Notes: generated by a model from the letters alone, not told the origin. 64,000 nucleotides of DNA from an uncultured Gammaproteobacteria bacterium (GCA_964396715.1 CAYNFQ010000003.1:565-64564), one strand, 5' to 3'; shown: positions 3,922 to 61,325, numbered from the stretch's first letter. Numbers and translations are program-made.

Positions 3922-5128
3922 AAAATTTCTTAAACCAAGAACTATTTTCATTGTTATTATTATTTTCGCTGCTTTCTTTAGACTTTACAGGCTTGATTAC
4001 CCTAATAAATATATCTTTGATGAGGTTTATCATGCATATACTGCCAAAGAGTATTTAAAAGGCAATAAAGAGGCCTGGAGTCCATGGGGAAAATCTACTG
4101 AAGAGGGAACTGCTTTTGAATGGCTGCATCCTCCTGTCTCCAAAGAGATCATGACAGCTTCTATGTTTATACTGAAAAATACGGATGCCTGGGCTTGGCG
4201 GTTACCCGGCGCACTGCTGGGCATTTTATCGGTAATTTTGGTTTATAAACTGGCGTCACTGCTTTTTAAAAATGCAGCAGCAGCGATTTTTTCGGCGCTA
4301 ATTTTTTCGATTGACGGGCTTAACTTTGTCCAATCCAGAATTGGCATGAATGATATATATCTTGTCACTTTCATTTTAGCAAGTGTTATTTTTTTCGTCC
4401 GAAAAAATTATCTGCTGTCAGCCATTTTTACGGGAATTGCCATATCTACTAAATGGCCCGGGGTTTTTCTGATGCTTATATATTTTCCAATCCTTATTGA
4501 TCAACGCCAATTCAAAAATCTTATTTTTTTTGTCTTAATTCTTCCGGCTATTTATCTTTTAAGCTATACTCCATACTTTTTAATTGGCTATACATGGAGT
4601 GATTTTATCCAGTTGCATAAACAAATATGGTGGTACCAGACTCATCTTAAGGCAACTCATGATTATGCTTCTCCCTGGTGGTCATGGCCGCTGAATTTAT
4701 ACCCTATCTGGTATTTTGTTGACTATATCGGGGAGTCTGTTGCCAATATTTTTGCCTCGGGAAATCCGGCAGTTTTTTTAATCGGCATCGGATCATTACT
4801 GCTAACACTTATTGAGGGCTTAAGAAAAAAATTAAAACATCTTTTACTAATAGTTGCACTATTTCTCGTTTTTTGGCTTCCCTGGGCCATATCCCCCAGG
4901 ATTATGTTTTTATACCACTTTTCCCCATCAGTTCCTTTTCTTTGCCTGGCAATCGGATACCAGCTTAATACCTTGATAAATAAAGGTAGGAGAAAAACAG
5001 CAATTTTGCTTTTGGCTCTTATGATTTTTTCATTCGCATTGCTGTTTCCTTTTTTAACAGGTATCCCTTTGTCCAAAAATTTAACCAACCTTTTCTTTTT
5101 TACAAATTTGGCAAAAAATCCTTTTTAA
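3914..5128 (+). CDS. Phospholipid-carrier-dependent glycosyltransferase (PMT/GT39-like)
   Basis: N-terminal FDEVYHAYTAKEYL...WLHPPVSK motif characteristic of bacterial PMT_2/ArnT-like GT39 enzymes; multi-TM. Confidence 0.5.
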   Translation: MYRKFLKPRTIFIVIIIFAAFFRLYRLDYPNKYIFDEVYHAYTAKEYLKGNKEAWSPWGKSTEEGTAFEWLHPPVSKEIMTASMFILKNTDAWAWRLPGALLGILSVILVYKLASLLFKNAAAAIFSALIFSIDGLNFVQSRIGMNDIYLVTFILASVIFFVRKNYLLSAIFTGIAISTKWPGVFLMLIYFPILIDQRQFKNLIFFVLILPAIYLLSYTPYFLIGYTWSDFIQLHKQIWWYQTHLKATHDYASPWWSWPLNLYPIWYFVDYIGESVANIFASGNPAVFLIGIGSLLLTLIEGLRKKLKHLLLIVALFLVFWLPWAISPRIMFLYHFSPSVPFLCLAIGYQLNTLINKGRRKTAILLLALMIFSFALLFPFLTGIPLSKNLTNLFFFTNLAKNPF

Positions 5129-6911: not shown

Positions 6912-7180
6912 TTAATAAGTCTTTTTAAAGTTTTCCCTGCTGTAAAGCCCGGGGTTTTTTTATTGGGGATTTGGATTGTTTCACCTGTTTGAGGATTTCT
7001 GCCGCGCCTTGCCGCCCTTGCTCTGATAAGAAAAGTTCCAAATCCGGTGATCACCACTTTTTCTCCGCGAACCAAACCGTCTCTGATTAAATTAAAAGTA
7101 GAATTAACCGCGTCTTGAGCGGCGCTTTTTGTTAAATTTGCTTTCTTGGCAACTTTTACAATTAACTCGTTCTTAGTCAT
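6908..7180 (-). CDS. hup: DNA-binding protein HU
   Basis: MTKNELIVKVAKKANLTKSAAQDAV...GFGTF...RNPQTGE... is the classic HU/IHF fold sequence. Confidence 0.8.
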   Translation of the reverse strand: MTKNELIVKVAKKANLTKSAAQDAVNSTFNLIRDGLVRGEKVVITGFGTFLIRARAARRGRNPQTGETIQIPNKKTPGFTAGKTLKRLIK

Positions 7181-7224
7181 GAGAGTAAATTACCAGAGGT
7201 TTATCCTTTTGTAAAGAGCCAAAA

Positions 7225-8574
7225 TCACTGTAAAGCAGTGGTGGTAGTTTCTGTTACTCTTATTTCTCTGATTGCTGTAATCCTAACAGATCCCGGCACC
7301 ATCACTTCCTTGGAGATCCTCTGGGCAATATCGTGTGTCAATTTTGGCAGCTCCTCATCTGAGATCTTCTCAGGCATCACTATCACCCTGACTTCTCTGC
7401 CTGCTTGCAGGGCAAAAGCTTTTTCTATCCCTTCAAAAGAGGTGGCAATTTTTTCAATATCGGAAAGCCTCTTGATATAATCTTCAACATTTTCGTGTCT
7501 GGCTCCTGGTCTCCCGCCAGAAATAGCATCTGCTATATAAACTAAAACAGACTCTATAGACGAGAAAGGCTTATCTTCATGATGCTCTGCAATACAATTA
7601 ACAACATTTTCTGGCATGCCGAATTTTTTGGCAACTTGAACACCTTTTTCAACATGGGTTCCTTCATCACCTTCTGTGACAACTTTTCCAATATCATGCA
7701 ACAAACAACCCAGGCGTACTACATTAGCATCCGCGCCTATTTCTTTAGCCAAAGCCACACCAATGCGCAACTCCTCCAGTGTATGTTGAATCAAGTTTTG
7801 ACCAAATGAAAATCTATATTTAAAACGGCCTAAAATTTTAACTAAATCAACAGGTAAGTTATATACTCCGCCATCTGCACAAAGTTTCTCTCCTGCTTGT
7901 AACATAATCTTTTCAAAATCCTCTTTTGTTTTTGTAACAATTTCCTCAATTCTTTGCGGTTGAATCCTGCCATCTGCAATCAGTCGCTCCAGTGCAGCTT
8001 TGGCAATCTCCCTTCTGACAGAATCAAAAGATGACAGTATCAAGGTATTGGGAATTTCATCATCCATAATTACATCAACACCGGTTGCCTGTTCAAATGT
8101 CCTGATATTTCTTCCTTCTTTGCCGATAATTCTGCCCTTAACTTCTTCATCAGGTAGATTAATCCTGGAGGTGGTAAATTCGGAAATCACATCGGTGAAA
8201 CCATGAAGCATGGCATCTGCCAAAATCTCTTTGGCTTTTTCATCAGCGGAAAGTTTTAGTTCCTCTTCTGCTGCTTTGATTTTTTTGGAAATCTCTGGAG
8301 CCAAATCTTTTTCAACCTGATCAAGTAAAATTTTCTTTGCATCCTCGGCTGGCATTTTTGAAGCTTTTTCTAATTTTTCTACCAGATCTTTTCGGATTTG
8401 ATCAAGTTGTTCTAACTTGTCGTCAATTAGTTTAGTTTTTTGGGCAATCTGCCTTTCTCTTTCTTCCAAAACACCTTCTCTTTTGGCAAGTTCCGCTTCG
8501 CGTTGAGAAAAATTTCCCATAGTTGGAGTGGGTGTTTGCATACCAAAATTTTTAGGACCAAATGTACGTTGCAT
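7225..8574 (-). CDS. rny: Ribonuclease Y
   Basis: N-terminal coiled coil, KH domain (RIIGKEGRNIR) and HD domain (LLHDIGK). Confidence 0.8.
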   Translation of the reverse strand: MQRTFGPKNFGMQTPTPTMGNFSQREAELAKREGVLEERERQIAQKTKLIDDKLEQLDQIRKDLVEKLEKASKMPAEDAKKILLDQVEKDLAPEISKKIKAAEEELKLSADEKAKEILADAMLHGFTDVISEFTTSRINLPDEEVKGRIIGKEGRNIRTFEQATGVDVIMDDEIPNTLILSSFDSVRREIAKAALERLIADGRIQPQRIEEIVTKTKEDFEKIMLQAGEKLCADGGVYNLPVDLVKILGRFKYRFSFGQNLIQHTLEELRIGVALAKEIGADANVVRLGCLLHDIGKVVTEGDEGTHVEKGVQVAKKFGMPENVVNCIAEHHEDKPFSSIESVLVYIADAISGGRPGARHENVEDYIKRLSDIEKIATSFEGIEKAFALQAGREVRVIVMPEKISDEELPKLTHDIAQRISKEVMVPGSVRITAIREIRVTETTTTALQ

Positions 8575-18836: not shown

Positions 18837-19949
18837 TTAAACCACTTTCTCCCAGGGGAATTCTTCACGGCCAAAATGACCATAGCTGGCAGTTGGTAAA
18901 TAGATTGGCCTTTGTAAATCCAAACCTTGTAAAATTCCTGAAACTGAAGTATCCAAAATTTTATCCATAAAGGAAAGCAATACTTTGTGAGATTTTTTGG
19001 CAGTGCCAAAAGTTTCCACATCTTCCATAGTGGGTTTTTTAGCCCCAATAAAATATGCCAGTCTCACTTCTGCTTTTTCAGCTAGCCCATTTGCCACAAT
19101 ATTTTTGGCTAAAAATCTGGCTGCATATGCCCCGCCTCTATCTACTTTTGAGGGCTCTTTACCGGAAAAACATCCTCCGCCAACTCTGGCATAACCGCCA
19201 TATGTATCCACCACAATTTTTCTGCCGGTTAATCCGCAATCAGAGGCCGGTCCGCCATTGTGCCAGATTCCTGTACCATTAACAATTAAATCATTCTTTT
19301 TTATTTTAAACCCAAACATCTCCAATACCGGTATAACTATAAAATTATAAACATCATCTTTTACCTCATCTAAATTTACGGATTCTTTATGAGGTACAGC
19401 TATGACAACTTGAGTTACTCTGATAGGTTTTCCGTCATTGTATTCTATAGTTACTTGAGATTTTCCATCCGGCCTTAAATACTTAATAATATTCTCTTCT
19501 CTAACAGTATCCATTCTTTTGGTCAAAGAGTGTGCCATCATAATAGGCAGCGGCATTAAAGAGTTTGTCTCCTTACAAGCAAAACCAAACATCATCCCCT
19601 GATCTCCTGCCCCTTTTTTCTTAACCCCCACGGCAATTTCCGGGGATTGTTCATGAACAAATACTTCAATTGGAGACTGATCTGAAAAATTAAATTTAGG
19701 ATCTGTATAGCCTAATCTTTTTATTTGCTCTCTGGCAATTTTTTTAAAATCTATTTTGGCTTTTGCTCCAATTTCCCCGGCAATAATTAATCTGTCATTT
19801 CCTGCCAGACATTCAATGGCAGTCCTGCCCTGTGGGTCTTGAGCTAAAACTGCATCCAAAATGGCATCGGAAATCTGGTCGCAAATTTTGTCCGGATGAC
19901 CGCTACAGACTGATTCAGAAGTAAAAGTTGTAATGCCGTTTTTTGCCAT
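18837..19949 (-). CDS. metK: S-adenosylmethionine synthetase
   Basis: GHPDKICDQISDAILD, GAGDQGMMFG and the C-terminal metK signature. Confidence 0.9.
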   Translation of the reverse strand: MAKNGITTFTSESVCSGHPDKICDQISDAILDAVLAQDPQGRTAIECLAGNDRLIIAGEIGAKAKIDFKKIAREQIKRLGYTDPKFNFSDQSPIEVFVHEQSPEIAVGVKKKGAGDQGMMFGFACKETNSLMPLPIMMAHSLTKRMDTVREENIIKYLRPDGKSQVTIEYNDGKPIRVTQVVIAVPHKESVNLDEVKDDVYNFIVIPVLEMFGFKIKKNDLIVNGTGIWHNGGPASDCGLTGRKIVVDTYGGYARVGGGCFSGKEPSKVDRGGAYAARFLAKNIVANGLAEKAEVRLAYFIGAKKPTMEDVETFGTAKKSHKVLLSFMDKILDTSVSGILQGLDLQRPIYLPTASYGHFGREEFPWEKVV

Positions 19950-20122
19950 AAGTTTTCCCTTTCGGGCACATCATTTTGGCACCGTTAACTTATCGGTTGT
20001 CGCTACGTTCATGTAAACTGAACGTAGACTCTTGATGCAATATTATTTAACCATACATCAGCTATTTTGGCAAGTGACGAATATAGTGAGTCATCCTGAG
20101 CGACCAAAGGGAGTCGAAGGAT

Positions 20123-41071: not shown

Positions 41072-44000
41072 CTAACTTTGTTTTCGGTAATACCAGAAGC
41101 TAAACAGAGCCGCCAAGGTAATAGTTAATATCACTAACCACTTATTTTTAATCAATGAATCAACCACAGTTGGTGTTTGTTGAAATGCTTGCGCTTCCCC
41201 TAATACCTCAGGTGTTTGAGTGGGTACATCGCTCTTTTTTACCTCTTGGGTAATTTCTGCCGAGGTGGTGGTCTCTCCCAAAACACCCGGGGCAAATCCT
41301 GCTGCCGGTTCGCTAACCACTGCGCCTTGTGGTGTGGCTGACAGTTCATTGGAAAAATCCCCCGGGGCGCAACCATTACCTGCTCTTGCCCTAAAATAAT
41401 AGGTAGTTCCTCCGGAAAGCCCCTGGACAGTATATGAAGAGGTTCCGGGACCACCAATATTGGGGTTACCATACTGTTGTTGCCCGGAGGTAAGTCCGTA
41501 AGTTGCCAGGTAATAGCTGACAGGATCTTTAGCTTTGCTCCAGTTTAAGATGACGCTATTTACTCCACCGATTGCAGACAGAAGAGTAGGTGCGCTGCCG
41601 GGTTTTGCATCAGAGCAAACAGGCGGCGTGCCGCCTCCGCCGGCAGAGGAAAGCGCCTGGGTGGTTGAACCAGCAGCAGATGAGGCTGCAACTGTGCGGG
41701 TGGTGGCATAATATGAGGCTTTGGTGGCTGTAAATGTACAAATTCCTGCAGCCACTGTACAAGTTGCCGGAGCCACAATCCCATCCGAAGTCCAGCCTGA
41801 AGAAGTATTGGTGGAGCGTACCACGTTGAGGGTTTGACCATTTAAGGAAGTACCTACAAAAATATTCAAAGTAATGGCCTGGCTAAATTCCAAACCAAGA
41901 TTGGGAACACCCCACTGCAAGGCCCCCTCAACCGTGGTACCTGAGCTAAATCCGGACAAAGCACCGCTTGAAACATTGGCTGCAGCCAGCAGGGTGGAGT
42001 CAATATTGCCGCCTCCTGCTTTGGAGATAGTGGTACCTGAAGGCAATATCACATTGCTGGTCCCACCAGTTACTGCCACTGTCATAGTCATCTGCTGATT
42101 GACATTGACTGATGGGGTAGCAGCCTGGTTGGTGGTACCAGTTGGCAGGGAAAAAATTCCGCTGGAGAAAAAGGTGGCCGGACTAAAATCAGTTGCAGAA
42201 ATTGTTGAGGTGCTCAGTGTGGTGCGGGCCTCATCCGTATAATAGGGCCTGTATTTGACATTATTACTCACGCTATCCCCTGTACCTCCTGAATTGGTGG
42301 AATGAGTGGGTCCACTTTGAGAACCCCACCAGTTGTGAGAAGCAGTGACCAGCGTTACCCCTGCTTCTGCAGTTACCCCATTTCCGTTATTTCCAGAAAT
42401 TTGCGAGTTTTTAATAGTAACATTGCCTCCATTAACCTGAACTGCTATATCGGCATTGGAAAAGTTGATCTTTTCAATCGTGACAGTGCCTGTGGTAATT
42501 GTTAAGGCTGGCTCTCCGCTTGTTTCCTCCCAGATGGTAGTATTGCCCGCTCCCTTAATGGTCAGGTTTTTGGAAACAGTAACCGCCTCATCAAAACTTC
42601 CGGCCAAAATATTAACTGTGCCATTACCCGCTACAGCATTAACTGCCCGCTGGATAGTCAGGAAAGGATTAGATGCTACTCCGCTGGCTGTATTGTCATC
42701 CCCGGTTGGGGAGACATAAACATTACTGTTGATGTCAAACTGGGAAAAATGGCTGGTGGTGAAAGTAAGTATGCCACCAAATTCTCCGGGAGTAAATGAT
42801 AAATCCCCCGAAATAGGATAATTTGAGCTGGATGGAGGGATTTCACTACCGCTGTCATCTTTAACAATCAGAGCTGGTGTATCTGTGATGCCCAAACTAT
42901 CCAGGCCGTACATGGCGAGCGTGGCACCGGCATTTTTCAAATCCTGGGCGGTTCGGGCATCAAAACCAATTTTTCCCGCCTCTACCATCTCCAGTTTACT
43001 GCCCAGGTTTTGCAACAAGGTTTTGGTATTTTGGCTGGTTAAATTTAGAGTGGCGCTAAAAGTGATTTTCCCTTTGCCTGCTTTTTCAAAATAGAGGCCG
43101 GATGCAGCCGAGGGATTGTCAAGATCACCCAAATTTGTCGTTATGCCGGAGGCATTGATAGTGGAAACCAAACTGGCTATGGAAGGAGCCGGCGAACCAT
43201 TAAACCAGCCTTTGGTGGGAGTTGCGGCAGTAGACCAGGTTGCACCACCATCAGCAGTTCTGGCAATTGATGATCCGGCAGCCGGATCAGAGGCGGATAC
43301 TGATTGAGCATTGACAATGGTCGAGCTTGATTTTTGATAAGTAACCTTGTCTATCTCTGATCCTGAATTATTTTTTAGGGTGATTCTGTCTCCGTCCCCA
43401 TTAGAACTAAGATTATTTAACCAAGCAGCGCCTGTATTTTCGTAGACCACAACCCCCTGGGCAGGAATAGTCCCCAGTCCAGAGAGGCTTTTGGTCGTAT
43501 TTGCCTCATCAACGAGTGTCCAGCCGGTCAGTGAAATGTCGGCATTTGTTTTATTAAAAAGCTCCACCCACTCGTTCTGACCCGCTGACGGATGATACAC
43601 AAACTCATTAATTACTACGCTGGCTGTGCTTTCATCAAAAGGAGTAGCCACCCCTGAGGCAATAGTCCCCACTACCACAAAGACGGTAAAATGATTAAGT
43701 CCTGTGATAGTCAGGGTTTTATCTCCAGGAGTGACCCCGCCCAAGGTAACAAAGCTTTGGCCGTCTTCCGAGGCTTTTACCTCCACATTGTCCACAGTGG
43801 GAGTAGGTAAGGTTAAGGTATATTCAAAAGTGCCGTCTTGCATATCAGAGGAGATATCATAAGCAGTCTTTGACAAGGCCCCACTTTCTGCCATCTGTTT
43901 ATCAGTTAAAATAATCTCTTTGATAGTTACTTTGCCTGGAGAATCTGGAAGTTTATTAAATTTAACTGTGACTTTACTATTTTGAGGAGCTGTATAGGTT

Positions 44001-44317
44001 TTATCCAAAACTACGTTATCTTGAGTGATTACCCCTCCATCTACTGCCTGCCAGTCAGAAACAGGCACTGGATTCTCAGAAGATGTAGCTGCAGAACCGG
44101 ATGCTTCAGCTGGTAATGGGCTGAGACTTGGGCTGGGTTGAGGATCGTCAGTTGTGGTGGCAGAGGGAGTAGCTTCTACATTTTCCTCTGTCACTATCTG
44201 GGCAGACGGAGAAGCTTCTTGGGCATAAACTGGAGAAATCATTACCGGAATAAAAGAATTAAGCAGCAGGGACAAACCTGCCACAACTGAAATTATTTTT
44301 TGTCTGAATTTGTACAC
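41072..44317 (-). CDS. Large cell-surface protein with a signal peptide, a lamin-tail (LTD) domain, right-handed beta-helix repeats, a fibronectin-III-like domain and a C-terminal TM anchor
   Basis: LTD signature INEFVYHPSAGQNEWVELFN; NosD/pectate-lyase-like repeats (VSKNLTIKGAGNTTI..., NVTIKNSQISGNNGNG); FN3-like YYFRARAGNG; C-terminal hydrophobic anchor WLVILTITLAALF. Confidence 0.6.
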   Translation of the reverse strand: MYKFRQKIISVVAGLSLLLNSFIPVMISPVYAQEASPSAQIVTEENVEATPSATTTDDPQPSPSLSPLPAEASGSAATSSENPVPVSDWQAVDGGVITQDNVVLDKTYTAPQNSKVTVKFNKLPDSPGKVTIKEIILTDKQMAESGALSKTAYDISSDMQDGTFEYTLTLPTPTVDNVEVKASEDGQSFVTLGGVTPGDKTLTITGLNHFTVFVVVGTIASGVATPFDESTASVVINEFVYHPSAGQNEWVELFNKTNADISLTGWTLVDEANTTKSLSGLGTIPAQGVVVYENTGAAWLNNLSSNGDGDRITLKNNSGSEIDKVTYQKSSSTIVNAQSVSASDPAAGSSIARTADGGATWSTAATPTKGWFNGSPAPSIASLVSTINASGITTNLGDLDNPSAASGLYFEKAGKGKITFSATLNLTSQNTKTLLQNLGSKLEMVEAGKIGFDARTAQDLKNAGATLAMYGLDSLGITDTPALIVKDDSGSEIPPSSSNYPISGDLSFTPGEFGGILTFTTSHFSQFDINSNVYVSPTGDDNTASGVASNPFLTIQRAVNAVAGNGTVNILAGSFDEAVTVSKNLTIKGAGNTTIWEETSGEPALTITTGTVTIEKINFSNADIAVQVNGGNVTIKNSQISGNNGNGVTAEAGVTLVTASHNWWGSQSGPTHSTNSGGTGDSVSNNVKYRPYYTDEARTTLSTSTISATDFSPATFFSSGIFSLPTGTTNQAATPSVNVNQQMTMTVAVTGGTSNVILPSGTTISKAGGGNIDSTLLAAANVSSGALSGFSSGTTVEGALQWGVPNLGLEFSQAITLNIFVGTSLNGQTLNVVRSTNTSSGWTSDGIVAPATCTVAAGICTFTATKASYYATTRTVAASSAAGSTTQALSSAGGGGTPPVCSDAKPGSAPTLLSAIGGVNSVILNWSKAKDPVSYYLATYGLTSGQQQYGNPNIGGPGTSSYTVQGLSGGTTYYFRARAGNGCAPGDFSNELSATPQGAVVSEPAAGFAPGVLGETTTSAEITQEVKKSDVPTQTPEVLGEAQAFQQTPTVVDSLIKNKWLVILTITLAALFSFWYYRKQS

Positions 44318-44336
44318 TCAGGGATTATCCTACATC

Positions 44337-44377
44337 TTAACTTCAATATCAACGCCGGCTGGGATTTCTAAATGCAT
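44337..44377. repeat. Duplicate of the rpsJ 3-prime end (would encode [15 protein letters not shown]). It is about 85% identical to 45035-45077, and all differences are synonymous.
   Basis: Alignment by eye of the two segments. Confidence 0.75.
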
Positions 44378-44480
44378 TTACTTTCTAATTTGATGGTAGA
44401 CTGCAATAAACTGTCCAGTAAGCTCCCTTTGTATATCTTTTGGGAGAGTCTTCCCTAATTCTTTTAGATACTTCTTACCA

Positions 44481-44643
44481 TTAAAAACCATTAAAAATTT
44501 CCAGTAAAACTGGTTCACCATCCTTATCAACACTGACTACAGAATTTTCTGTCTCATAAGAATCATCAATCTTCTTATTGGAAAGTTGAATCATTAAAAT
44601 ATCAACATCTGGACTGTAACTAATCCTATTTTGTACTTTCATA
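44481..44643 (-). pseudogene. DUF2283-family small gene interrupted by a +1 frameshift (MKVQNRISYSPDVDILMIQLSQ* then out-of-frame ...NKKIDDSYETENSVVSVDKDGEPVLLEIFNGF)
   Basis: Manual translation. The extra C in ctttcccaataag breaks the frame. Confidence 0.35.
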
Positions 44644-44729
44644 TCTACCTCTCAATAAAATTATATCACGGACAAAAATTTCGCGATCGAGAATATAATG
44701 AAAATAAAATGCCCACCCTTGGGGTGGAA

Positions 44730-45014
44730 TTATATTGAAGGGTGTCTAAGTCTCCTCAGTGCTCTGTGTTCAAGACCCCACACAGATGAGGGAGTTATCT
44801 GCATCTCTTGGCCAATATCCGCAAGCGTCCTTGACTGTCCAGTTTTCAAACCAAACCGTTCGCGAAGAACAAAGCTTTGTTTAGTTGTAAGTCTACTTAA
44901 TACTTCTTCTACTTGTTGCTTTAATTTTCCTCTATCTCGAGGATGACTTTGTAAAAATGCTTCCAGTGCTGCATCTTCTTGATCTTGTCTTCCAAAATTT
45001 GGACCTTCTACCAT
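44730..45014 (-). CDS. Standalone sigma-70 region-4 (RpoD C-terminal) fragment, 94 aa
   Basis: LTTKQSFVLRERFGLKTGQSRTLADIGQEMQITPSSVWGLEHRALRRLRHPS is collinear with RpoD region 4.1/4.2 (REAKVLRMRFGI...[28 protein letters not shown]). Confidence 0.55.
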   Translation of the reverse strand: MVEGPNFGRQDQEDAALEAFLQSHPRDRGKLKQQVEEVLSRLTTKQSFVLRERFGLKTGQSRTLADIGQEMQITPSSVWGLEHRALRRLRHPSI

Positions 45015-45031
45015 ATTAACTTCATTTTATA

Positions 45032-45340
45032 CTACATTTTAACCTCAATGTCAACTCCGGCTGGGATCTCAAGATGCATTAGGGAATCAATGGTTTTTTG
45101 GGTGGGCTCAACAATATCCAAAACTCTTTTGTGGGTTTTTATTTCAAAAGCTTCTCTGGAGTCTTTATCCGTATGAGGAGAGGTTAAAACTGTAATTCTT
45201 TCTGTTTTGGTAGGTAAGGGAATGGGGCCGACAATTTTAGCACCGGTTCGAAGGGCTGTATCCAACAGGGACTCACAGGTGTGATCCAACACCCGATGGT
45301 CATAACTTTTCAGTTTTACTCTGATTCTTCCTCTTGGCAT
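45032..45340 (-). CDS. rpsJ: 30S ribosomal protein S10
   Basis: [15 protein letters not shown]...[13 protein letters not shown]. Confidence 0.9.
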
Positions 45341-47231: not shown

Positions 47232-48092
47232 TTATGGAGCAAGGCGGTTGAGGATTCTACCCAAAAGAGAATCTGTGCTTTGAACCACCTGACCATTTTC
47301 CGCTGAGACAAAAGCCTCAACATCTGTTTTAACCGGAATAAAACCTAACAGTTTATGGGTTTTAGTCCCTTTAACTTTATAACCCAATACCCCGTTTGCT
47401 GTTTCCAGCTTAACCAAATCCGGCACGCTGGCCAAACTATTGTCTGCTTTCTCGCTCACCACATCATCCATTACATGTGCGGCCAGCATATTATCAACTG
47501 CTTTTTGCGGCAAAACAGCCACAACTTTGATACCTGCCGGAGTAGTCACGGTTAATTGCCTGGTTGTTGGATCAACAGAAAGGGGGAAATTTGACAAAGC
47601 CCCCACTCTTTTGTTGATCAAAGCTATTTGACCCGGGGCTGTGGCTATTTTAACATCTTCTTTTTCCAGCTCATTTTCCACTTCCTCAACTGCTTCATTT
47701 TCTGCTTCATCCTCCAATTCTACCTCATCCTCAGCTTCTTTCACCTTAGTTTCTATCTTAACTTTACCATTTTCTATTTCATATTTAATCCTTAAATTCC
47801 CCTCTCTTATTTCACTTTTAATTTTCTCTGGGGTAGTTTTAGTTTCCACTCTGGAATTTTCTTTTCCTGCTTTAGTTTCCACTTTAACTGCATCAGAGGA
47901 AGAATCATCCCCACCTTTGGCCAAAGACACTCCGGCCACATCTGATTTTCCATCATTATAGTGCCTGGAAATGGGGATCATTGAGGAAACAACCAGCATA
48001 GCTGATAAACCCAAAACTAAAGTTAGCAGGTGAGTAAAACCACGTTCATGTGAACTGAATGTGGCAAAACCTTCTTCTTTTTTAGAGGACAT
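47232..48092 (-). CDS. Hypothetical secreted or membrane-anchored protein with an acidic low-complexity region
   Basis: N-terminal TM/signal segment; E-rich repeat block. Confidence 0.3.
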   Translation of the reverse strand: MSSKKEEGFATFSSHERGFTHLLTLVLGLSAMLVVSSMIPISRHYNDGKSDVAGVSLAKGGDDSSSDAVKVETKAGKENSRVETKTTPEKIKSEIREGNLRIKYEIENGKVKIETKVKEAEDEVELEDEAENEAVEEVENELEKEDVKIATAPGQIALINKRVGALSNFPLSVDPTTRQLTVTTPAGIKVVAVLPQKAVDNMLAAHVMDDVVSEKADNSLASVPDLVKLETANGVLGYKVKGTKTHKLLGFIPVKTDVEAFVSAENGQVVQSTDSLLGRILNRLAP

Positions 48093-48196
48093 AAACTCAG
48101 CTTAAAGCAAGTTCGTGACTTTGTCAAATTTAATGCTCCACCCTACCTGTAAATCCTGAGGCTTCAATTATTTTGGCAGTGATTTGAGGATTTAAT

Positions 48197-48748
48197 TTAT
48201 TTTTTCGCTTTAATAAAGGGTAAGAAATCTTCTCTTTTCAAAAGTCTTGATTCTGAACAATTGGCTATCATAGCCAGAGATGGCTTATGAGAAAAACCAA
48301 TATATTCCACAGTTTTACCTTTTTCCCTGGCTTTTTTAATTGCCGGCAAAAGATCTGTATCGGAAGAAACCAAAATAATGTGGTCACATAAATCTTCATA
48401 GGTGGCAACTAGCATATCTACGGCCATATTCACATCCACACCTTTTTCATGAAATTTACCATCAGATTTTAACAGATATCCAAGAGAGTATCTAAAACCG
48501 TTTTTCTTAAGATGGGCCAATAACTTTCGCTGATCTTTATACATTTTGAAAGAGCGTTTAGAACCATCTGTCCTGACTACTCCTACATAGTATATTGCTC
48601 CAACAATTTCCTTCTTACCAGACACCATTTTTGCAAAACCAGAGAAATTAAAGTTAAGTAAGTTGTGCAATTCTAAATCCTTCAACTTAAAGTAGAAATT
48701 ACTACCATCAATAAGAATTACACAACGCTGTTTTTTCATAAAATCCAT
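48197..48748 (-). CDS. NYN-domain (LabA/DUF88-like) protein, putative RNase
   Basis: CVILIDGSNFYF...ILVSSDTDLLPAIKKA matches the PIN-like NYN/LabA signature. Confidence 0.5.
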   Translation of the reverse strand: MDFMKKQRCVILIDGSNFYFKLKDLELHNLLNFNFSGFAKMVSGKKEIVGAIYYVGVVRTDGSKRSFKMYKDQRKLLAHLKKNGFRYSLGYLLKSDGKFHEKGVDVNMAVDMLVATYEDLCDHIILVSSDTDLLPAIKKAREKGKTVEYIGFSHKPSLAMIANCSESRLLKREDFLPFIKAKK

Positions 48749-57908: not shown

Positions 57909-60900
57909 TTACTTAGCCTCCTCTGTATCTATGACCTCAAACGGACTGTTTTCTGATTCAAGCTCACCTGCACTAGCAGTTGGCTTCATCTCCAGCGCTT
58001 CCTCCAATTGGGCAACTTCTTGAGCAACCTCCAACTTTTCCTCCACTTCCGGAGCCTGTACTATTTTTGCGCCCAAAGTTTCCACAGACAAACCCAAAGC
58101 CTGCAATTCTTTCACCAAAACCTTAAAAGATTCAGGAATTAACGCTTGTGGAATCTCAATCCCCTTTACAATTGCCTCAAAGGCCTTGGCCCGTCCCACC
58201 ACATCATCTGATTTGATTGTTAACATTTCCTGCAAAATGTGTGCGGCCCCATATGCCTCAAGCGCCCAAACTTCCATCTCCCCCAATCTTTGTCCGCCCA
58301 TTTGAGCCTTACCCCCAAGAGGTTGCTGAGTCACCAGCGAATAAGGGCCGGTGGAACGGGCATGAATTTTTTCCTCAACCATATGGATGAGCTTAAGGAT
58401 ATAGTTTTTGCCAACCACAATGGTGTTATTGAAAGGCAGGCCGCTTCTGCCGTCAATCAGTTTAACCTTTCCATCTTGTGGCAAACCGCTTTTTTTCAAC
58501 TCTGCTATCAGTTTGTCTTCGGGAATCTTTTCAAAAACCGGAGCGGCGACTTGATAACCCAGTCGCTCCGCCGCAAACCCCCAGTGGGTTTCCAAAAGCT
58601 GACCCAAGTTCATACGGGATAAAACAGACAGAGGAGAAATGATGATATCAACCGGCGTCCCATCCTCCAAATGCGGCATGTCAGAAGAGGGTACAATTTT
58701 GGAGATCACTCCTTTATTGCCGTGTCTTCCTGCCAGTTTGTCTCCCTCAGTCACCTTTCTCATCTGGGCAACTTTGACCTTAATTCTCATCAAAGTGCCG
58801 GTATCCAGCTCGTCTCCCTCGTCTCTGGAGAGGATTTGTACGCCAATCACTGTACCTCTTTCGCCGTGCGGGATTCTTAAAGATGTATCCCTGACCTCTT
58901 TGGCCTTCTCCCCAAAGATGGCCCTGAGCAGTCTTTCCTCGGCTGTCAGCTCGGTTTCACCCTTCGGCTGAACTTTACCAACCAAAATATCATTTGGCCC
59001 CACCTCCGCCCCGATCCTGACAATTCCCCGATCGTCCAAATTGGCCAGCGCATCCTCGGAAACATTGGGGATATCGCGGGTTAACTCCTCGAGCCCTAGC
59101 TTGGTTTCCACAACATCTACTTCATATTCCTCAATGTGGATTGAGGTTAGCAGATCTTCCTTGACTAACCTATCTGAAATAACGATGGCGTCCTCATATC
59201 CCAACCCGTCAAAGCTCATATAGGCAATTAAAAGGTTTTGACCTAAAGCCAGCTCCCCGTTTTGTGTGGCTGCGCCGTCAATTAACAGATCTCCCCTTTT
59301 CACCCTGTCTCCCACACTACAGACCGGTTTTTGGGAATAACAAGTTCCCTGGGGGGAATGGACAAACTTCTTGATCTCGAATTTGTACTCTCCTCTTTTC
59401 CCCTTCAGTATTAATTTGTTCCCGTCTACATATTTCACTGTTCCGTCTTCAGGCGCTCTGACTACCCTGCCCATATTATCCGCCACCATGCGCTCCATGC
59501 CAGTTCCCACAATCGGAGCATGGGGAATCAGTAATGGCACTGCCTGACACTGCATTTGTGTCCCCATCAAGGCCCTGTTGGCATCATCATTGCCTAAAAA
59601 CGGAATTAAAGACGCTGAAGTTCCAAAAATTTGCTGGGGGGAAACATCTATTAAGGCAATTTCACGGGCATCACCCTCGTAAAAACTGCCTTTAAAGCGC
59701 ACCGGCACCCGATCATCAACAATATAGCCTTTTTCGTTAATATTAACGGTGGCCTCGGTGATGTGATATTCCTCTTCATCATCTGCAGACAAATAGACTA
59801 CCTCATCTAAGACCTTCGGCTTGCCTCGCTCCAAAACCACTTTTCTATAAGGGGTTTCCAAAAATCCATACTCATCAATCCGGGCATAGAGCGCCAGGTA
59901 AGTCACCAGGCCAATGTTTTGTCCCTCAGGAGAACGGATGGGGTCAATCCTGCCGTATTGCGAATGATTAATATCGCGTACTGAAAATGATGCCCGATCG
60001 CGGGTGATGCCACCTGCTCCCATAACGGACAACCTTCTTAAATGATCCAGCTCGGATAAAGGGTTAACCTGGTCTAAAATTGAGGACAGTTGGGATGAGC
60101 GGAAAAATTCATTAATTGCCGCAATCACCGGTTTGGCATTGATCAGGCCGCCCGGCGTCACCAGCTGATCAGCGGCAGTCAGACTCATCCGCTCCTTAAT
60201 AATCCTTTCCAGCCGGAGCACCCCGATTCTGAAAGCATTTTGCTGCACCAATTCTCCCGCGCACCTCACCCTCCTGTTGGCCAAATGGTCTATATCATCC
60301 AACTTTCCTTCTCCGTTTACCAGCTTAATTAAATATTTTAAAGTGGCAATAATATCAGTGTTGGTCAGAATCCAATTGTCTGCTTTGTTGGGAAGATCCA
60401 AACCCAACCTTTTATTAATCTTGAATCTGCCCACCTTGGTTAAATTATAGCGTCGCCCGTTAAAAAACATTCCCTCAAGGAGCGCTTTAGCATTATCCAA
60501 AACAACCGGGTCGCCCGGCCTCATTTTTCTGAATATTTCCAAAAGCGCCTCATCGGTATTGGCGGTTGGGTCTTTTGCCAAGGTGGCATCAATATATTTT
60601 CCATCCCCCTCTTCCACATCTTTGAAAAGACCAACAATTGATGCGTTATCGGAAAACCCCAAAGCACGAAGCAGGGTGGTGGCGGCAAATTTTCTTCTTC
60701 TGTCAATTTTGGCGGTTAAAACTCCAGTTCTTGAAACATTAAACTCCAACCAGGATCCTCTGTAAGGACGGATTTCTGCTGAGTATAATCTTCTGCCAGT
60801 GATGGGATCATCAACTGCGGAAAAGAATACTCCAGGAGAGCGGACTAACTGATTAATAATCACTCTTTCCACTCCGTTAATAATAAAAGTACCTTTCTCG

Positions 60901-61325
60901 GTCATTTGGGGAATGTCGCCCAAAAATACTTCCTGCTTACTCCTCTCGCCTGTTTGTTTATTAACCAAAATTGCCTCAATTTTTAAAGGAGCGTCATATG
61001 TGACGCCTTTTTCGTGAGCCTGCTCAGCGCTATATTTTGATTTGCCAAAATAAAAGGACCCCAAGTTAAGGGTCCAGTTTTTTCCTGTAAAATCCTCAAC
61101 AGGAGAAATCTCCTGGAGGACATCTCTAATTCCTTCTTTTAAAAACCAATTATACGAATCAAGCTGCAGTTGAATTAAGTTTAGTTGCGGAGCAGGAGCG
61201 GAAGATTTATTCCAAGATTTTCTAATATTATCAATCTTTGTTGTGCTTTGTACAGACATTAGTAGATGGCCTTTGGGACAGTTCCACTTAACACCACTTA
61301 GTGTTAGATCAACAAAATGAAGCAT
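57909..61325 (-). CDS. rpoB: DNA-directed RNA polymerase subunit beta (probable true start MSVQSTT near 61259)
   Basis: Conserved regions including the rifampicin cluster, and GHKGV-like motifs. Confidence 0.95.
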   Translation of the reverse strand: MLHFVDLTLSGVKWNCPKGHLLMSVQSTTKIDNIRKSWNKSSAPAPQLNLIQLQLDSYNWFLKEGIRDVLQEISPVEDFTGKNWTLNLGSFYFGKSKYSAEQAHEKGVTYDAPLKIEAILVNKQTGERSKQEVFLGDIPQMTEKGTFIINGVERVIINQLVRSPGVFFSAVDDPITGRRLYSAEIRPYRGSWLEFNVSRTGVLTAKIDRRRKFAATTLLRALGFSDNASIVGLFKDVEEGDGKYIDATLAKDPTANTDEALLEIFRKMRPGDPVVLDNAKALLEGMFFNGRRYNLTKVGRFKINKRLGLDLPNKADNWILTNTDIIATLKYLIKLVNGEGKLDDIDHLANRRVRCAGELVQQNAFRIGVLRLERIIKERMSLTAADQLVTPGGLINAKPVIAAINEFFRSSQLSSILDQVNPLSELDHLRRLSVMGAGGITRDRASFSVRDINHSQYGRIDPIRSPEGQNIGLVTYLALYARIDEYGFLETPYRKVVLERGKPKVLDEVVYLSADDEEEYHITEATVNINEKGYIVDDRVPVRFKGSFYEGDAREIALIDVSPQQIFGTSASLIPFLGNDDANRALMGTQMQCQAVPLLIPHAPIVGTGMERMVADNMGRVVRAPEDGTVKYVDGNKLILKGKRGEYKFEIKKFVHSPQGTCYSQKPVCSVGDRVKRGDLLIDGAATQNGELALGQNLLIAYMSFDGLGYEDAIVISDRLVKEDLLTSIHIEEYEVDVVETKLGLEELTRDIPNVSEDALANLDDRGIVRIGAEVGPNDILVGKVQPKGETELTAEERLLRAIFGEKAKEVRDTSLRIPHGERGTVIGVQILSRDEGDELDTGTLMRIKVKVAQMRKVTEGDKLAGRHGNKGVISKIVPSSDMPHLEDGTPVDIIISPLSVLSRMNLGQLLETHWGFAAERLGYQVAAPVFEKIPEDKLIAELKKSGLPQDGKVKLIDGRSGLPFNNTIVVGKNYILKLIHMVEEKIHARSTGPYSLVTQQPLGGKAQMGGQRLGEMEVWALEAYGAAHILQEMLTIKSDDVVGRAKAFEAIVKGIEIPQALIPESFKVLVKELQALGLSVETLGAKIVQAPEVEEKLEVAQEVAQLEEALEMKPTASAGELESENSPFEVIDTEEAK

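Follow-up and report, generated by a model that had tools for sequence, protein, structure and literature searches.

Several phage proteins, including T4 gp33, AsiA, Thermus phage P23-45 gp39, Xp10 P7 and S. aureus phage G1 ORF67, act at the interface between sigma region 4 and the beta flap of RNAP. PDB entry 4g6d, from our Foldseek comparison, and the paper PMC3985653, from the literature searches, are connected with these proteins. Sigma functions can also be carried by two-part systems, such as SigO-RsoA of B. subtilis and the split sigma-like subunits of some phages. To our knowledge, no free sigma domain-4 mimic has previously been found as a regulator in cells, and the role is known from phage proteins which are not homologous to sigma. 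Integrative elements may target and restore the 3' end of a conserved gene, as at att sites of the tRNA/tmRNA type, and small helix-turn-helix (HTH) proteins often act as directionality factors in such elements. As a rule, few gene orders in bacteria are as stable as the rpsJ-rplC junction.

The window analysed here, which means the whole stretch of 64,000 nucleotides, contains a gene for a free-standing sigma C-terminal module at 44730-45014 on the minus strand. Its 94-residue product consists of a linker-like N-terminus and regions 4.1/4.2. Our tentative reading is that this is a functional, selected free sigma-4 module, located after rpsJ in a mobile cassette, which would act by protein contact on the RNAP side. 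We give this reading a probability of about 0.4.

The ORF starts with ATG at 45014 and ends with TAA at 44730, and the encoded protein is MVEGPNFGRQDQEDAALEAFLQSHPRDRGKLKQQVEEVLSRLTTKQSFVLRERFGLKTGQSRTLADIGQEMQITPSSVWGLEHRALRRLRHPSI. An identical protein, annotated as hypothetical, exists in the Candidatus Daviesbacteria MAG GCA_016192255.1 (contig JACPUL010000002.1). The Pfam model Sigma70_r4 (PF04545) was matched over its whole length (model 1-50/50) by residues 38-91 with E=1e-10, and the score of 41.4 bits passed the gathering cut-off of 24.1 bits. The top NCBIfam matches were the C-terminal ends of RpoD models (the last 65-80 positions). When PDB sequences were searched with phmmer, the top matches were primary sigma factors; B. 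subtilis SigA was matched at 297-361 (E=9e-13), and E. coli sigma-70 524-602 paired with residues 13-93 of the ORF. The AlphaFold2 (AF2) model of the protein showed five helices with a mean pLDDT of 82.4, and Foldseek placed it within 0.8-1.2 A of solved sigmaA region 4 over 60-65 residues. Pfam, NCBIfam, phmmer and the AF2 fold all agreed with the earlier note, made from the sequence alone, that the ORF is collinear with RpoD region 4.1/4.2 including the LRHPS end.

The same note had described the ORF as lacking regions 1-3, and this was confirmed. No match to these regions was given by Pfam or NCBIfam, and 94 residues are too short to hold them. The Pfam matches were restricted to Sigma70_r4 and r4_2, without the region 2 that a functional sigma requires. 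Only generic sigma matches were returned by the PADLOC and PHROGs searches, and no second sigma-like ORF was found within the 64-kb window. Residues 1-30 precede region 4.1. In several alignments the protein ran parallel to the sigma 3.2/4.1 linker from about residue 11-13 on, but significance in the profile-profile alignment (hhalign) began only at residue 24. MAFFT, and in part phmmer and Foldseek, hinted that residues 1-23 are homologous to region 3.2; this stretch falls outside the significant hhalign alignment, and the homology was not accepted. The ORF encodes an entire sigma domain 4, preceded by a short linker-like stretch, and has no regions 1-3.

Residues were scored over an alignment of the 13 family members described below, using position lists for sigma-70 (PMC4943231). 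Its core-binding positions include E555, R562, F563, I565, G577 and L598 (PMC4943231). In the family, 67% of the residues at the core-binding positions were identical to those of E. coli. G577 was kept in all members (13/13) and F563 in 12/13, while E555 and R562 were each kept in 9/13. L598 was kept in 9/13 with I or F in the remainder, and I565 was Leu in 9/13, as in many RpoDs. The window protein has Q, R, F, L, G and L at the six positions. The -35 contacts, which include R584, E585, R586, R588 and Q589 (PMC4943231), were 28% identical overall in the family. As for the base readers, E585 and R586 were found in no member (0/13 each), Q589 in one and R584 in three. The window protein carries the changes R584P, E585S, R586S, R588W and Q589G, so that its helix reads TPSSVWGLE versus TRERIRQIE, and its ALRRLRHPS end is intact. 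Most family members, the window protein less so, have a basic recognition helix of the S-x-x-T-V-R-R type. At the level of aligned residues, the family keeps the core-binding positions and has replaced the -35-reading residues of the recognition helix. Since the "core-binding" residues also lie in the hydrophobic core of the domain, their conservation may reflect folding alone. The protein has no region 2 and has lost the -35 readers, and it is therefore not a sigma factor.

The RpoB encoded in the window contains a canonical flap-tip helix, TAEERLLRAIFGEK; the corresponding E. coli peptide is TPEEKLLRAIFGEK (PMC6606751). In subfamily b (P0018, P0152-P0154), residues 20-32 form an N-terminal extension, KLTVEE(R/K)L(I/L/F/A)GxI(L/F/M), which resembles the flap-tip helix LTAEERLLRAIF of the window RpoB (57909-61325, around residues 790-806). 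Flap-tip mimicry by the N-terminal LTVEERLIGGIL of this subfamily was considered and set aside: BLAST gave nothing significant, the AF2 confidence was low there, and the resemblance may be due to chance.

A word-indexed search of 5.8 billion proteins for a near-identical sigma gave the ORF itself and nothing else. In an exhaustive HMMER search of 1.84 billion representatives, full-length sigmas were at most 54% identical over region 4. The same search found three short proteins (P0004, P0010 and P0018) that matched the whole length of the ORF and shared its non-sigma N-terminus, and profile searches brought in the members P0151-P0154. GTDB species representatives were also scanned with the window S10, which yielded 80 loci, and 47 of them (L021-L067) were classed as Daviesbacteria-like by an S10 identity of at least 74%. 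A sigma-4-only ORF followed rpsJ in 5/47 Daviesbacteria-like loci versus 0/33 other loci. Four of these homologues (L025, L033, L034 and L056) were above the Pfam threshold, and that of L051 was included by hhalign with 96% probability. The family now has 13 members, namely the window ORF, 7 metagenomic proteins (loci L011-L020) and the 5 from GTDB species representatives. Two further candidates, L021:2638-2955 and L049:5200-5577, looked HTH-like by eye and were rejected, since Pfam, PHROGs and hhalign gave no support. A metagenome scan with subfamily a returned an already known contig and ordinary sigma factors only.

The distance from the rpsJ stop to the sigma-4 homologue was 12-29 nt at all homologous loci. 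On metagenome contigs with visible context the homologue starts 12-17 nt past the rpsJ stop, and at the GTDB loci 12-28 nt past it; on the longer metagenome contigs rplC was found downstream. In the literature searched there was no description of this family, its function or its address after rpsJ. The sigma-4 family is new and, as far as found, confined to Daviesbacteria-like genomes.

In the window, rpsJ (S10) lies at 45032-45340 on the minus strand (Pfam Ribosomal_S10, full model, E=7.8e-36), and its stop is 17 nt upstream of the sigma-4 start. The sigma-4 ORF is followed by a hairpin and then by about 3.9 kb of inserted genes before the ribosomal gene run resumes with rplC (L3; 40073-40855, minus strand; Pfam Ribosomal_L3 was recorded for the same gene in L001). 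The inserted genes, both on the minus strand, include a 53-residue DUF2283 ORF at 44481-44642 (Pfam DUF2283, E=4.5e-10) and a gene for a 1081-residue LTD/fn3 protein at 41072-44317 (Pfam LTD and fn3). In the loci without insertions the rpsJ-rplC gap was 13-206 nt, and it was 181-206 nt in five "empty" Daviesbacteria loci. Among the other Daviesbacteria-like loci it reached up to about 4 kb, and the slot was occupied by membrane proteins, opposite-strand GIY-YIG and DUF3276 genes, an LTD protein and others. In L021, whose S10 is the most similar among the species representatives (97% protein identity), another gene comes first after rpsJ. The S10 operon is interrupted at rpsJ-rplC in the Daviesbacteria lineage, and the junction is a recombination hotspot there in spite of its usual stability. 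The "S10 operon" location given by the earlier note was correct in that the ORF directly follows rpsJ, but it seems to close a tuf-rpsJ unit instead of lying inside a continuous operon.

Some further observations were made on this slot. A DUF2283 gene likewise follows the sigma-4 homologue in L016, where an 89-residue ORF and an 84-residue DUF2283 gene come after it. The DUF2283 ORF of the window overlaps a 51-residue ORF in another frame (44378-44642); this copy may have decayed from a two-gene module. Otherwise the genes downstream vary between the sigma-4 loci. An opposite-strand gene of 77-102 residues lies directly upstream of rplC in L024, L027, L031, L034 and L035, and in L016 at 952-1185; the L016 copy has a recorded Pfam match (DUF3276), and the others look alike by eye. 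With an opposite-strand gene before rplC, there is therefore no simple rpsJ-rplC operon at those loci. A second break in the str/S10 run was seen between fusA and tuf, where the window (47232-48748) holds two non-ribosomal genes, an NYN-domain gene (48197-48748) and a 286-residue gene without a recorded family match (47232-48092). Elsewhere in the window, a SAM-I/IV riboswitch match was recorded at 19941-20043 on the minus strand (47.1 bits, gathering 41.1), overlapping the start of a 370-residue ORF (18837-19949) by 9 nt.

The 3' end of rpsJ was found twice in the window as a 54-nt direct repeat. Copy 1 (45027-45080) is the functional end, and copy 2 (44325-44378) is displaced 702 nt downstream. 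The local alignment score of the two copies was 76, versus a maximum of 31 in shuffled sequences. They were 85% identical, every coding difference was synonymous, and copy 2 still encodes the C-terminal residues of rpsJ. The repeats bracket the sigma-4 ORF and, as second gene of the cassette, the short DUF2283 ORF. The LTD/fn3 gene starts 7 nt past copy 2 and occupies the slot separately; elsewhere sigma-4 homologues adjoin rpsJ without it. The earlier note had suggested that the ORF was carried in by the insertion. The bracketing by rpsJ ends upheld this, but the ORF turned out to be independent of the large adjoining LTD/fn3 gene.

Similar repeats bracket the sigma-4 genes of L018 (125-164/676-715) and L056 (6261-6309/6878-6926). 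They also surround other first genes in L049 (about 5125-5151/5619-5645) and L065 (about 1961-1987/2661-2687), and in L059 (about 4573-4599/4877-4903) they enclose a 0.3-kb segment without a called gene. The L059 assembly is derived from a single cell, and the rpsJ end region occurs in it a second time in inverted orientation (1588-1918 and 4573-4903), possibly as a chimeric artefact. The bracketed cassettes are 0.3-0.7 kb long. Their second copy comprises the last 9-18 rpsJ codons, always keeps ...GVDIEVKM* and shows synonymous differences only.

The rpsJ ends of L028, L029, L032 and L037, which are other species, matched copy 2 of the window at 92-94% identity. Because copy 2 is closer to these than to the window's own rpsJ, it evolved inside the working rpsJ of another lineage. 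The bracketing by rpsJ ends is, as read from the repeats, an att-like signature of integration and horizontal transfer. Empty sites exist in other species, and the insert was present at all 10 listed places that encode the exact window protein. A comparison of L025 (2274-2591) with L033 (6338-6661) gave a dS of 0.29 for the sigma-4 gene versus 1.01 for the adjacent rpsJ, which again suggests that the cassette moves horizontally. A recombinase was found neither in the window neighbourhood nor in the related loci. The integration may be either site-specific in trans or of the homologous Campbell type.

The junction between rpsJ and the cassette contains a promoter-like site at 45026-45054 on the minus strand, with TTGACA (45049-45054), a 17-nt spacer and TATAAA (45026-45031); this is a consensus match only. 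The TTGACA falls in the GVDI codons of rpsJ, and the TATAAA lies directly past the rpsJ stop. Owing to the A at position 6 of its -10 box, the site was missed by the consensus scanner. A TATAAA-like box, then 6-11 nt and ATGG(T/A)AGA, was found at most junctions where an ORF follows closely, and the box was absent from the inspected empty sites (L023, L030, L032 and L038). The same stop/TATAAA/ATGG(T/A)AGA junction was noted in L018 (707-881, ORF 723-881), L056 (6927-7303, ORF 6941-7303), L040 (6326-6607) and the window (45012-45034). A start with MVE or MVD was common to ORFs that were otherwise unlike the sigma-4 family. These sequences suggest that the start region is a property of the site and not of the cargo.

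Two nucleotides past the ORF stop lies an intrinsic-terminator-like hairpin (44700-44728, minus strand) of CCACCCC AAG GGGTGG and a U-rich tail. Its centroid energy was -10.5 kcal/mol and its MFE -12, with z=-3.3. The hairpin and the sequence downstream are conserved in L021 and L026. An extended -10-like box, TGATATAAT, at 44660-44668 on the minus strand lies upstream of the DUF2283 ORF and is kept in L026; it is likewise a match to the consensus only. Because the terminator-like hairpin follows it, the sigma-4 gene looks like the terminal gene of the tuf-rpsJ unit, and it may have a junction promoter of its own. The earlier note had taken expression to be assured by the ribosomal protein operon. 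This calls for revision, as the gene lies 17 nt after rpsJ with a terminator behind it, and the rpsJ end and the cassette together form a promoter-like site.

In our preferred reading, the gene would be transcribed with tuf-rpsJ and/or from the junction site made of the TTGACA of the rpsJ end and the TATAAA of the cassette. Its product would keep the sigma-4 surface for binding to the beta flap tip and would have lost the reading of the -35 hexamer. It would occupy the flap-tip helix of beta, or sequester the proteins binding to sigma region 4, and would in either case shift -35-dependent initiation without itself acting as a sigma. A protein-protein contact is proposed because the core-binding surface is kept while the -35 readers are lost. 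The idea of a decoy, raised in the earlier note, fits this residue pattern, and a candidate target is present in the flap-tip helix of the window RpoB. Several points speak against our reading, besides the place of the kept residues in the fold core and the lack of significant homology of residues 1-23 to region 3.2. A free domain must compete with sigma A's own tethered region 4. A split or defective primary sigma is conceivable, as no rpoD lies in the window or the related loci. The basic recognition helix of most members would suit DNA binding with a new specificity. Finally, selection on the gene is moderate, and one homologue pair has a dN/dS of about 1 with motifs lost.

The earlier note had also considered that the ORF could be a pseudogene fragment, and asked whether selection keeps the frame in relatives. 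The frame is kept, since all 13 family members are open; in the family alignment, the identity of the 12 further members to the window protein was 20-51%. The pairwise dN/dS of the sigma-4 genes was 0.23-0.48, and the synonymous excess was significant in 10/11 pairs (p=0.03 to 6e-7); the rpsJ genes of the genomes compared gave a dN/dS of at most 0.09. The L025/L033 pair is the exception with a dN/dS of about 1. Both proteins lack the FGL and LRHP motifs and read FHP... and IPDPSKLY, and the pair suggests a recent transfer that was followed by relaxed or diversifying evolution. The sigma-4 gene is under purifying selection of moderate strength in most lineages. It is extremely improbable that the ORF survives as a pseudogene from a duplicated rpoD 3' end, or that it is a functionless chance ORF. 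In favour of such an origin, the ORF is short, has no obvious Shine-Dalgarno sequence and sits in an insertion hotspot, and the L025/L033 pair evolves neutrally. However, many other window genes also lack a Shine-Dalgarno sequence, and the AF2 fold is confident. No near-identical parent exists among the proteins searched, with the limit of 54% for full-length sigmas among representatives; the resident rpoD lies outside the window, as neither the window nor any of the 80 related loci contains one. The start position after rpsJ is kept by the 13 intact homologues across up to about 80% protein divergence, and their low identity to the window ORF means that they are not assembly duplicates of one sequence. 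The absence of a near-identical sigma among the proteins searched, the relatives at the same position, the intact frames and the synonymous excess contradict a pseudogene fragment. The sigma-4 ORF is a real, conserved and moderately fast-evolving gene and, to judge from the proteins searched, not a recent remnant of rpoD.

The main and serious rival to a decoy is a retargeted DNA-binding regulator, a sigma-4-derived HTH protein of the GerE/LuxR-like kind with new specificity and no RNAP contact, for example an autoregulator at the rpsJ-end promoter or the rplC operon promoter. We regard it as possible, if rather unlikely. Most members carry S-x-x-T-V-(R/K)-R-x-E with Arg at the equivalents of R588 and Q589 in 7/13 and 9/13, and NCBI calls one member "sigma factor-like helix-turn-helix DNA-binding protein". 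Weak GerE/HTH Pfam matches were seen for L025, L033 and L056; the GerE model itself gave sub-threshold matches for L025 and L056 only, and no match for the window protein. The rpsJ end and the TTGACA/TATAAA site are the sole constant neighbours of the gene, which suits an autoregulator, but the downstream genes are not constant across loci. The recognition helix of the window protein, moreover, has Pro, Trp and Gly in its first turns and few basic residues. The family also retains the RpoD-specific ALRKLRHPS end, and subfamily b the RpoD C-terminal tail, neither of which is needed by a generic HTH. The boundaries of the module, which equal those of the sigma C-terminal module, its linker-like N-terminus, and the kept core-binding residues beside an altered recognition helix would also suit a region 4 replacement acting in trans. 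Such a split or swapped sigma would dock on the beta flap of a holoenzyme in which the sigma has no region 4 or lets it go, and send RNAP to promoters with another or no -35 element. We consider this decidedly unlikely. The gene is patchy (5/47 related species representatives), which implies a primary sigma that suffices by itself in the lineage; the recognition helix is strongly divergent among members, and a truncated partner sigma was not seen. An excisionase-like directionality factor, which would recognise an attachment site at the rpsJ end, is highly improbable. The gene adjoins a repeated rpsJ end containing TTGACA, the natural target of region 4, but the TTGACA-reading residues are lost and the neighbourhood has no recombinase gene. 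Moreover, the bracketed cassette of L065 at the same site has another first gene without significant sigma-4 similarity, and the first gene of the L049 cassette is doubtful (hhalign probability 36%).

A contact with RNAP, as we prefer, would make the protein a free sigma domain-4 mimic used as a cellular regulator, in bacteria with very few transcription factors. If the decoy were true, it would move the host RNAP off -35-dependent promoters, or shield sigma A by absorbing phage inhibitors. The sigma A surface that it would copy, which binds the flap tip, is known to be targeted by anti-sigma proteins of phages. If the decoy were also cassette-borne, this would account for how fast it evolves and for the genes around it, namely a toxin-antitoxin-like gene and nucleases. 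A broader and quite doubtful proposal is that the Daviesbacteria rpsJ 3' end is an att site of integrase-less, species-hopping mini-cassettes with a hybrid rpsJ promoter, whose commonest cargo is a sigma-4 decoy.

Other sigma-4 architectures were met during the searches. Among IMG/VR viral contigs, sigma-4-only ORFs of 81-102 residues were found (L104, 715-1023; L107/L108/L109, 81 residues). An intact RpoD-like region 4 together with a C-terminal near-flap-tip motif was present in the viral loci L103 (ORF 117-866) and L102 (ORF 985-2679) and in the proteins P0032 and P0030, with flap-tip-like endings such as ...KLLRAIFGE, ...LIPAIFGEK and ...KLLKAIFGE. To judge by their motifs, these proteins look like natural counterparts of engineered sigma-4/flap-tip chimeras; no description of them was found in the literature searched. 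Tandem sigma-4-like repeats, 6 to 10 or more, were seen in P0002 (938 residues), P0006 (647 residues) and P0150 (589 residues), for which the representative search matched 10, 6 and 7 stretches.

Compared with the integrative elements of the tRNA/tmRNA att type, which restore conserved gene 3' ends, the Daviesbacteria cassettes likewise have direct repeats and a displaced copy that keeps coding. They differ in being only 0.3-0.7 kb long, in having no integrase and in targeting a ribosomal protein gene. The generic proteins annotated with Sigma70_r4 only share the domain-only architecture with the window family, but the latter has a fixed address after rpsJ and forms a distinct sequence cluster. 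The viral sigma-4-only ORFs keep a near-canonical helix (TRERIRCVE, TRERIRVIE), whereas the Daviesbacteria family has replaced those residues. In two-part sigmas, functions are spread over separate polypeptides; the window module has no identified partner, and its patchy distribution speaks against an essential split sigma.

The closest structural relative is region 4 of the primary sigma (RpoD/SigA). The window protein is collinear with it, including (F)VLRxRFGL and ALRxLRHPS, has the same fold within 0.8-1.2 A and keeps the core positions. In contrast to the primary sigma, it lacks regions 1.1-3.1, so that it cannot open promoters or bind the beta' clamp helices, and R584, E585, R586, R588 and Q589 are all replaced. 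The nearest functional analogues would be the phage proteins of the sigma-4/flap interface, which are small, often lie on mobile DNA and may change the use of -35-dependent promoters. Those proteins are not homologous to sigma-4, whereas the window protein would compete by mimicking sigma-4 directly.
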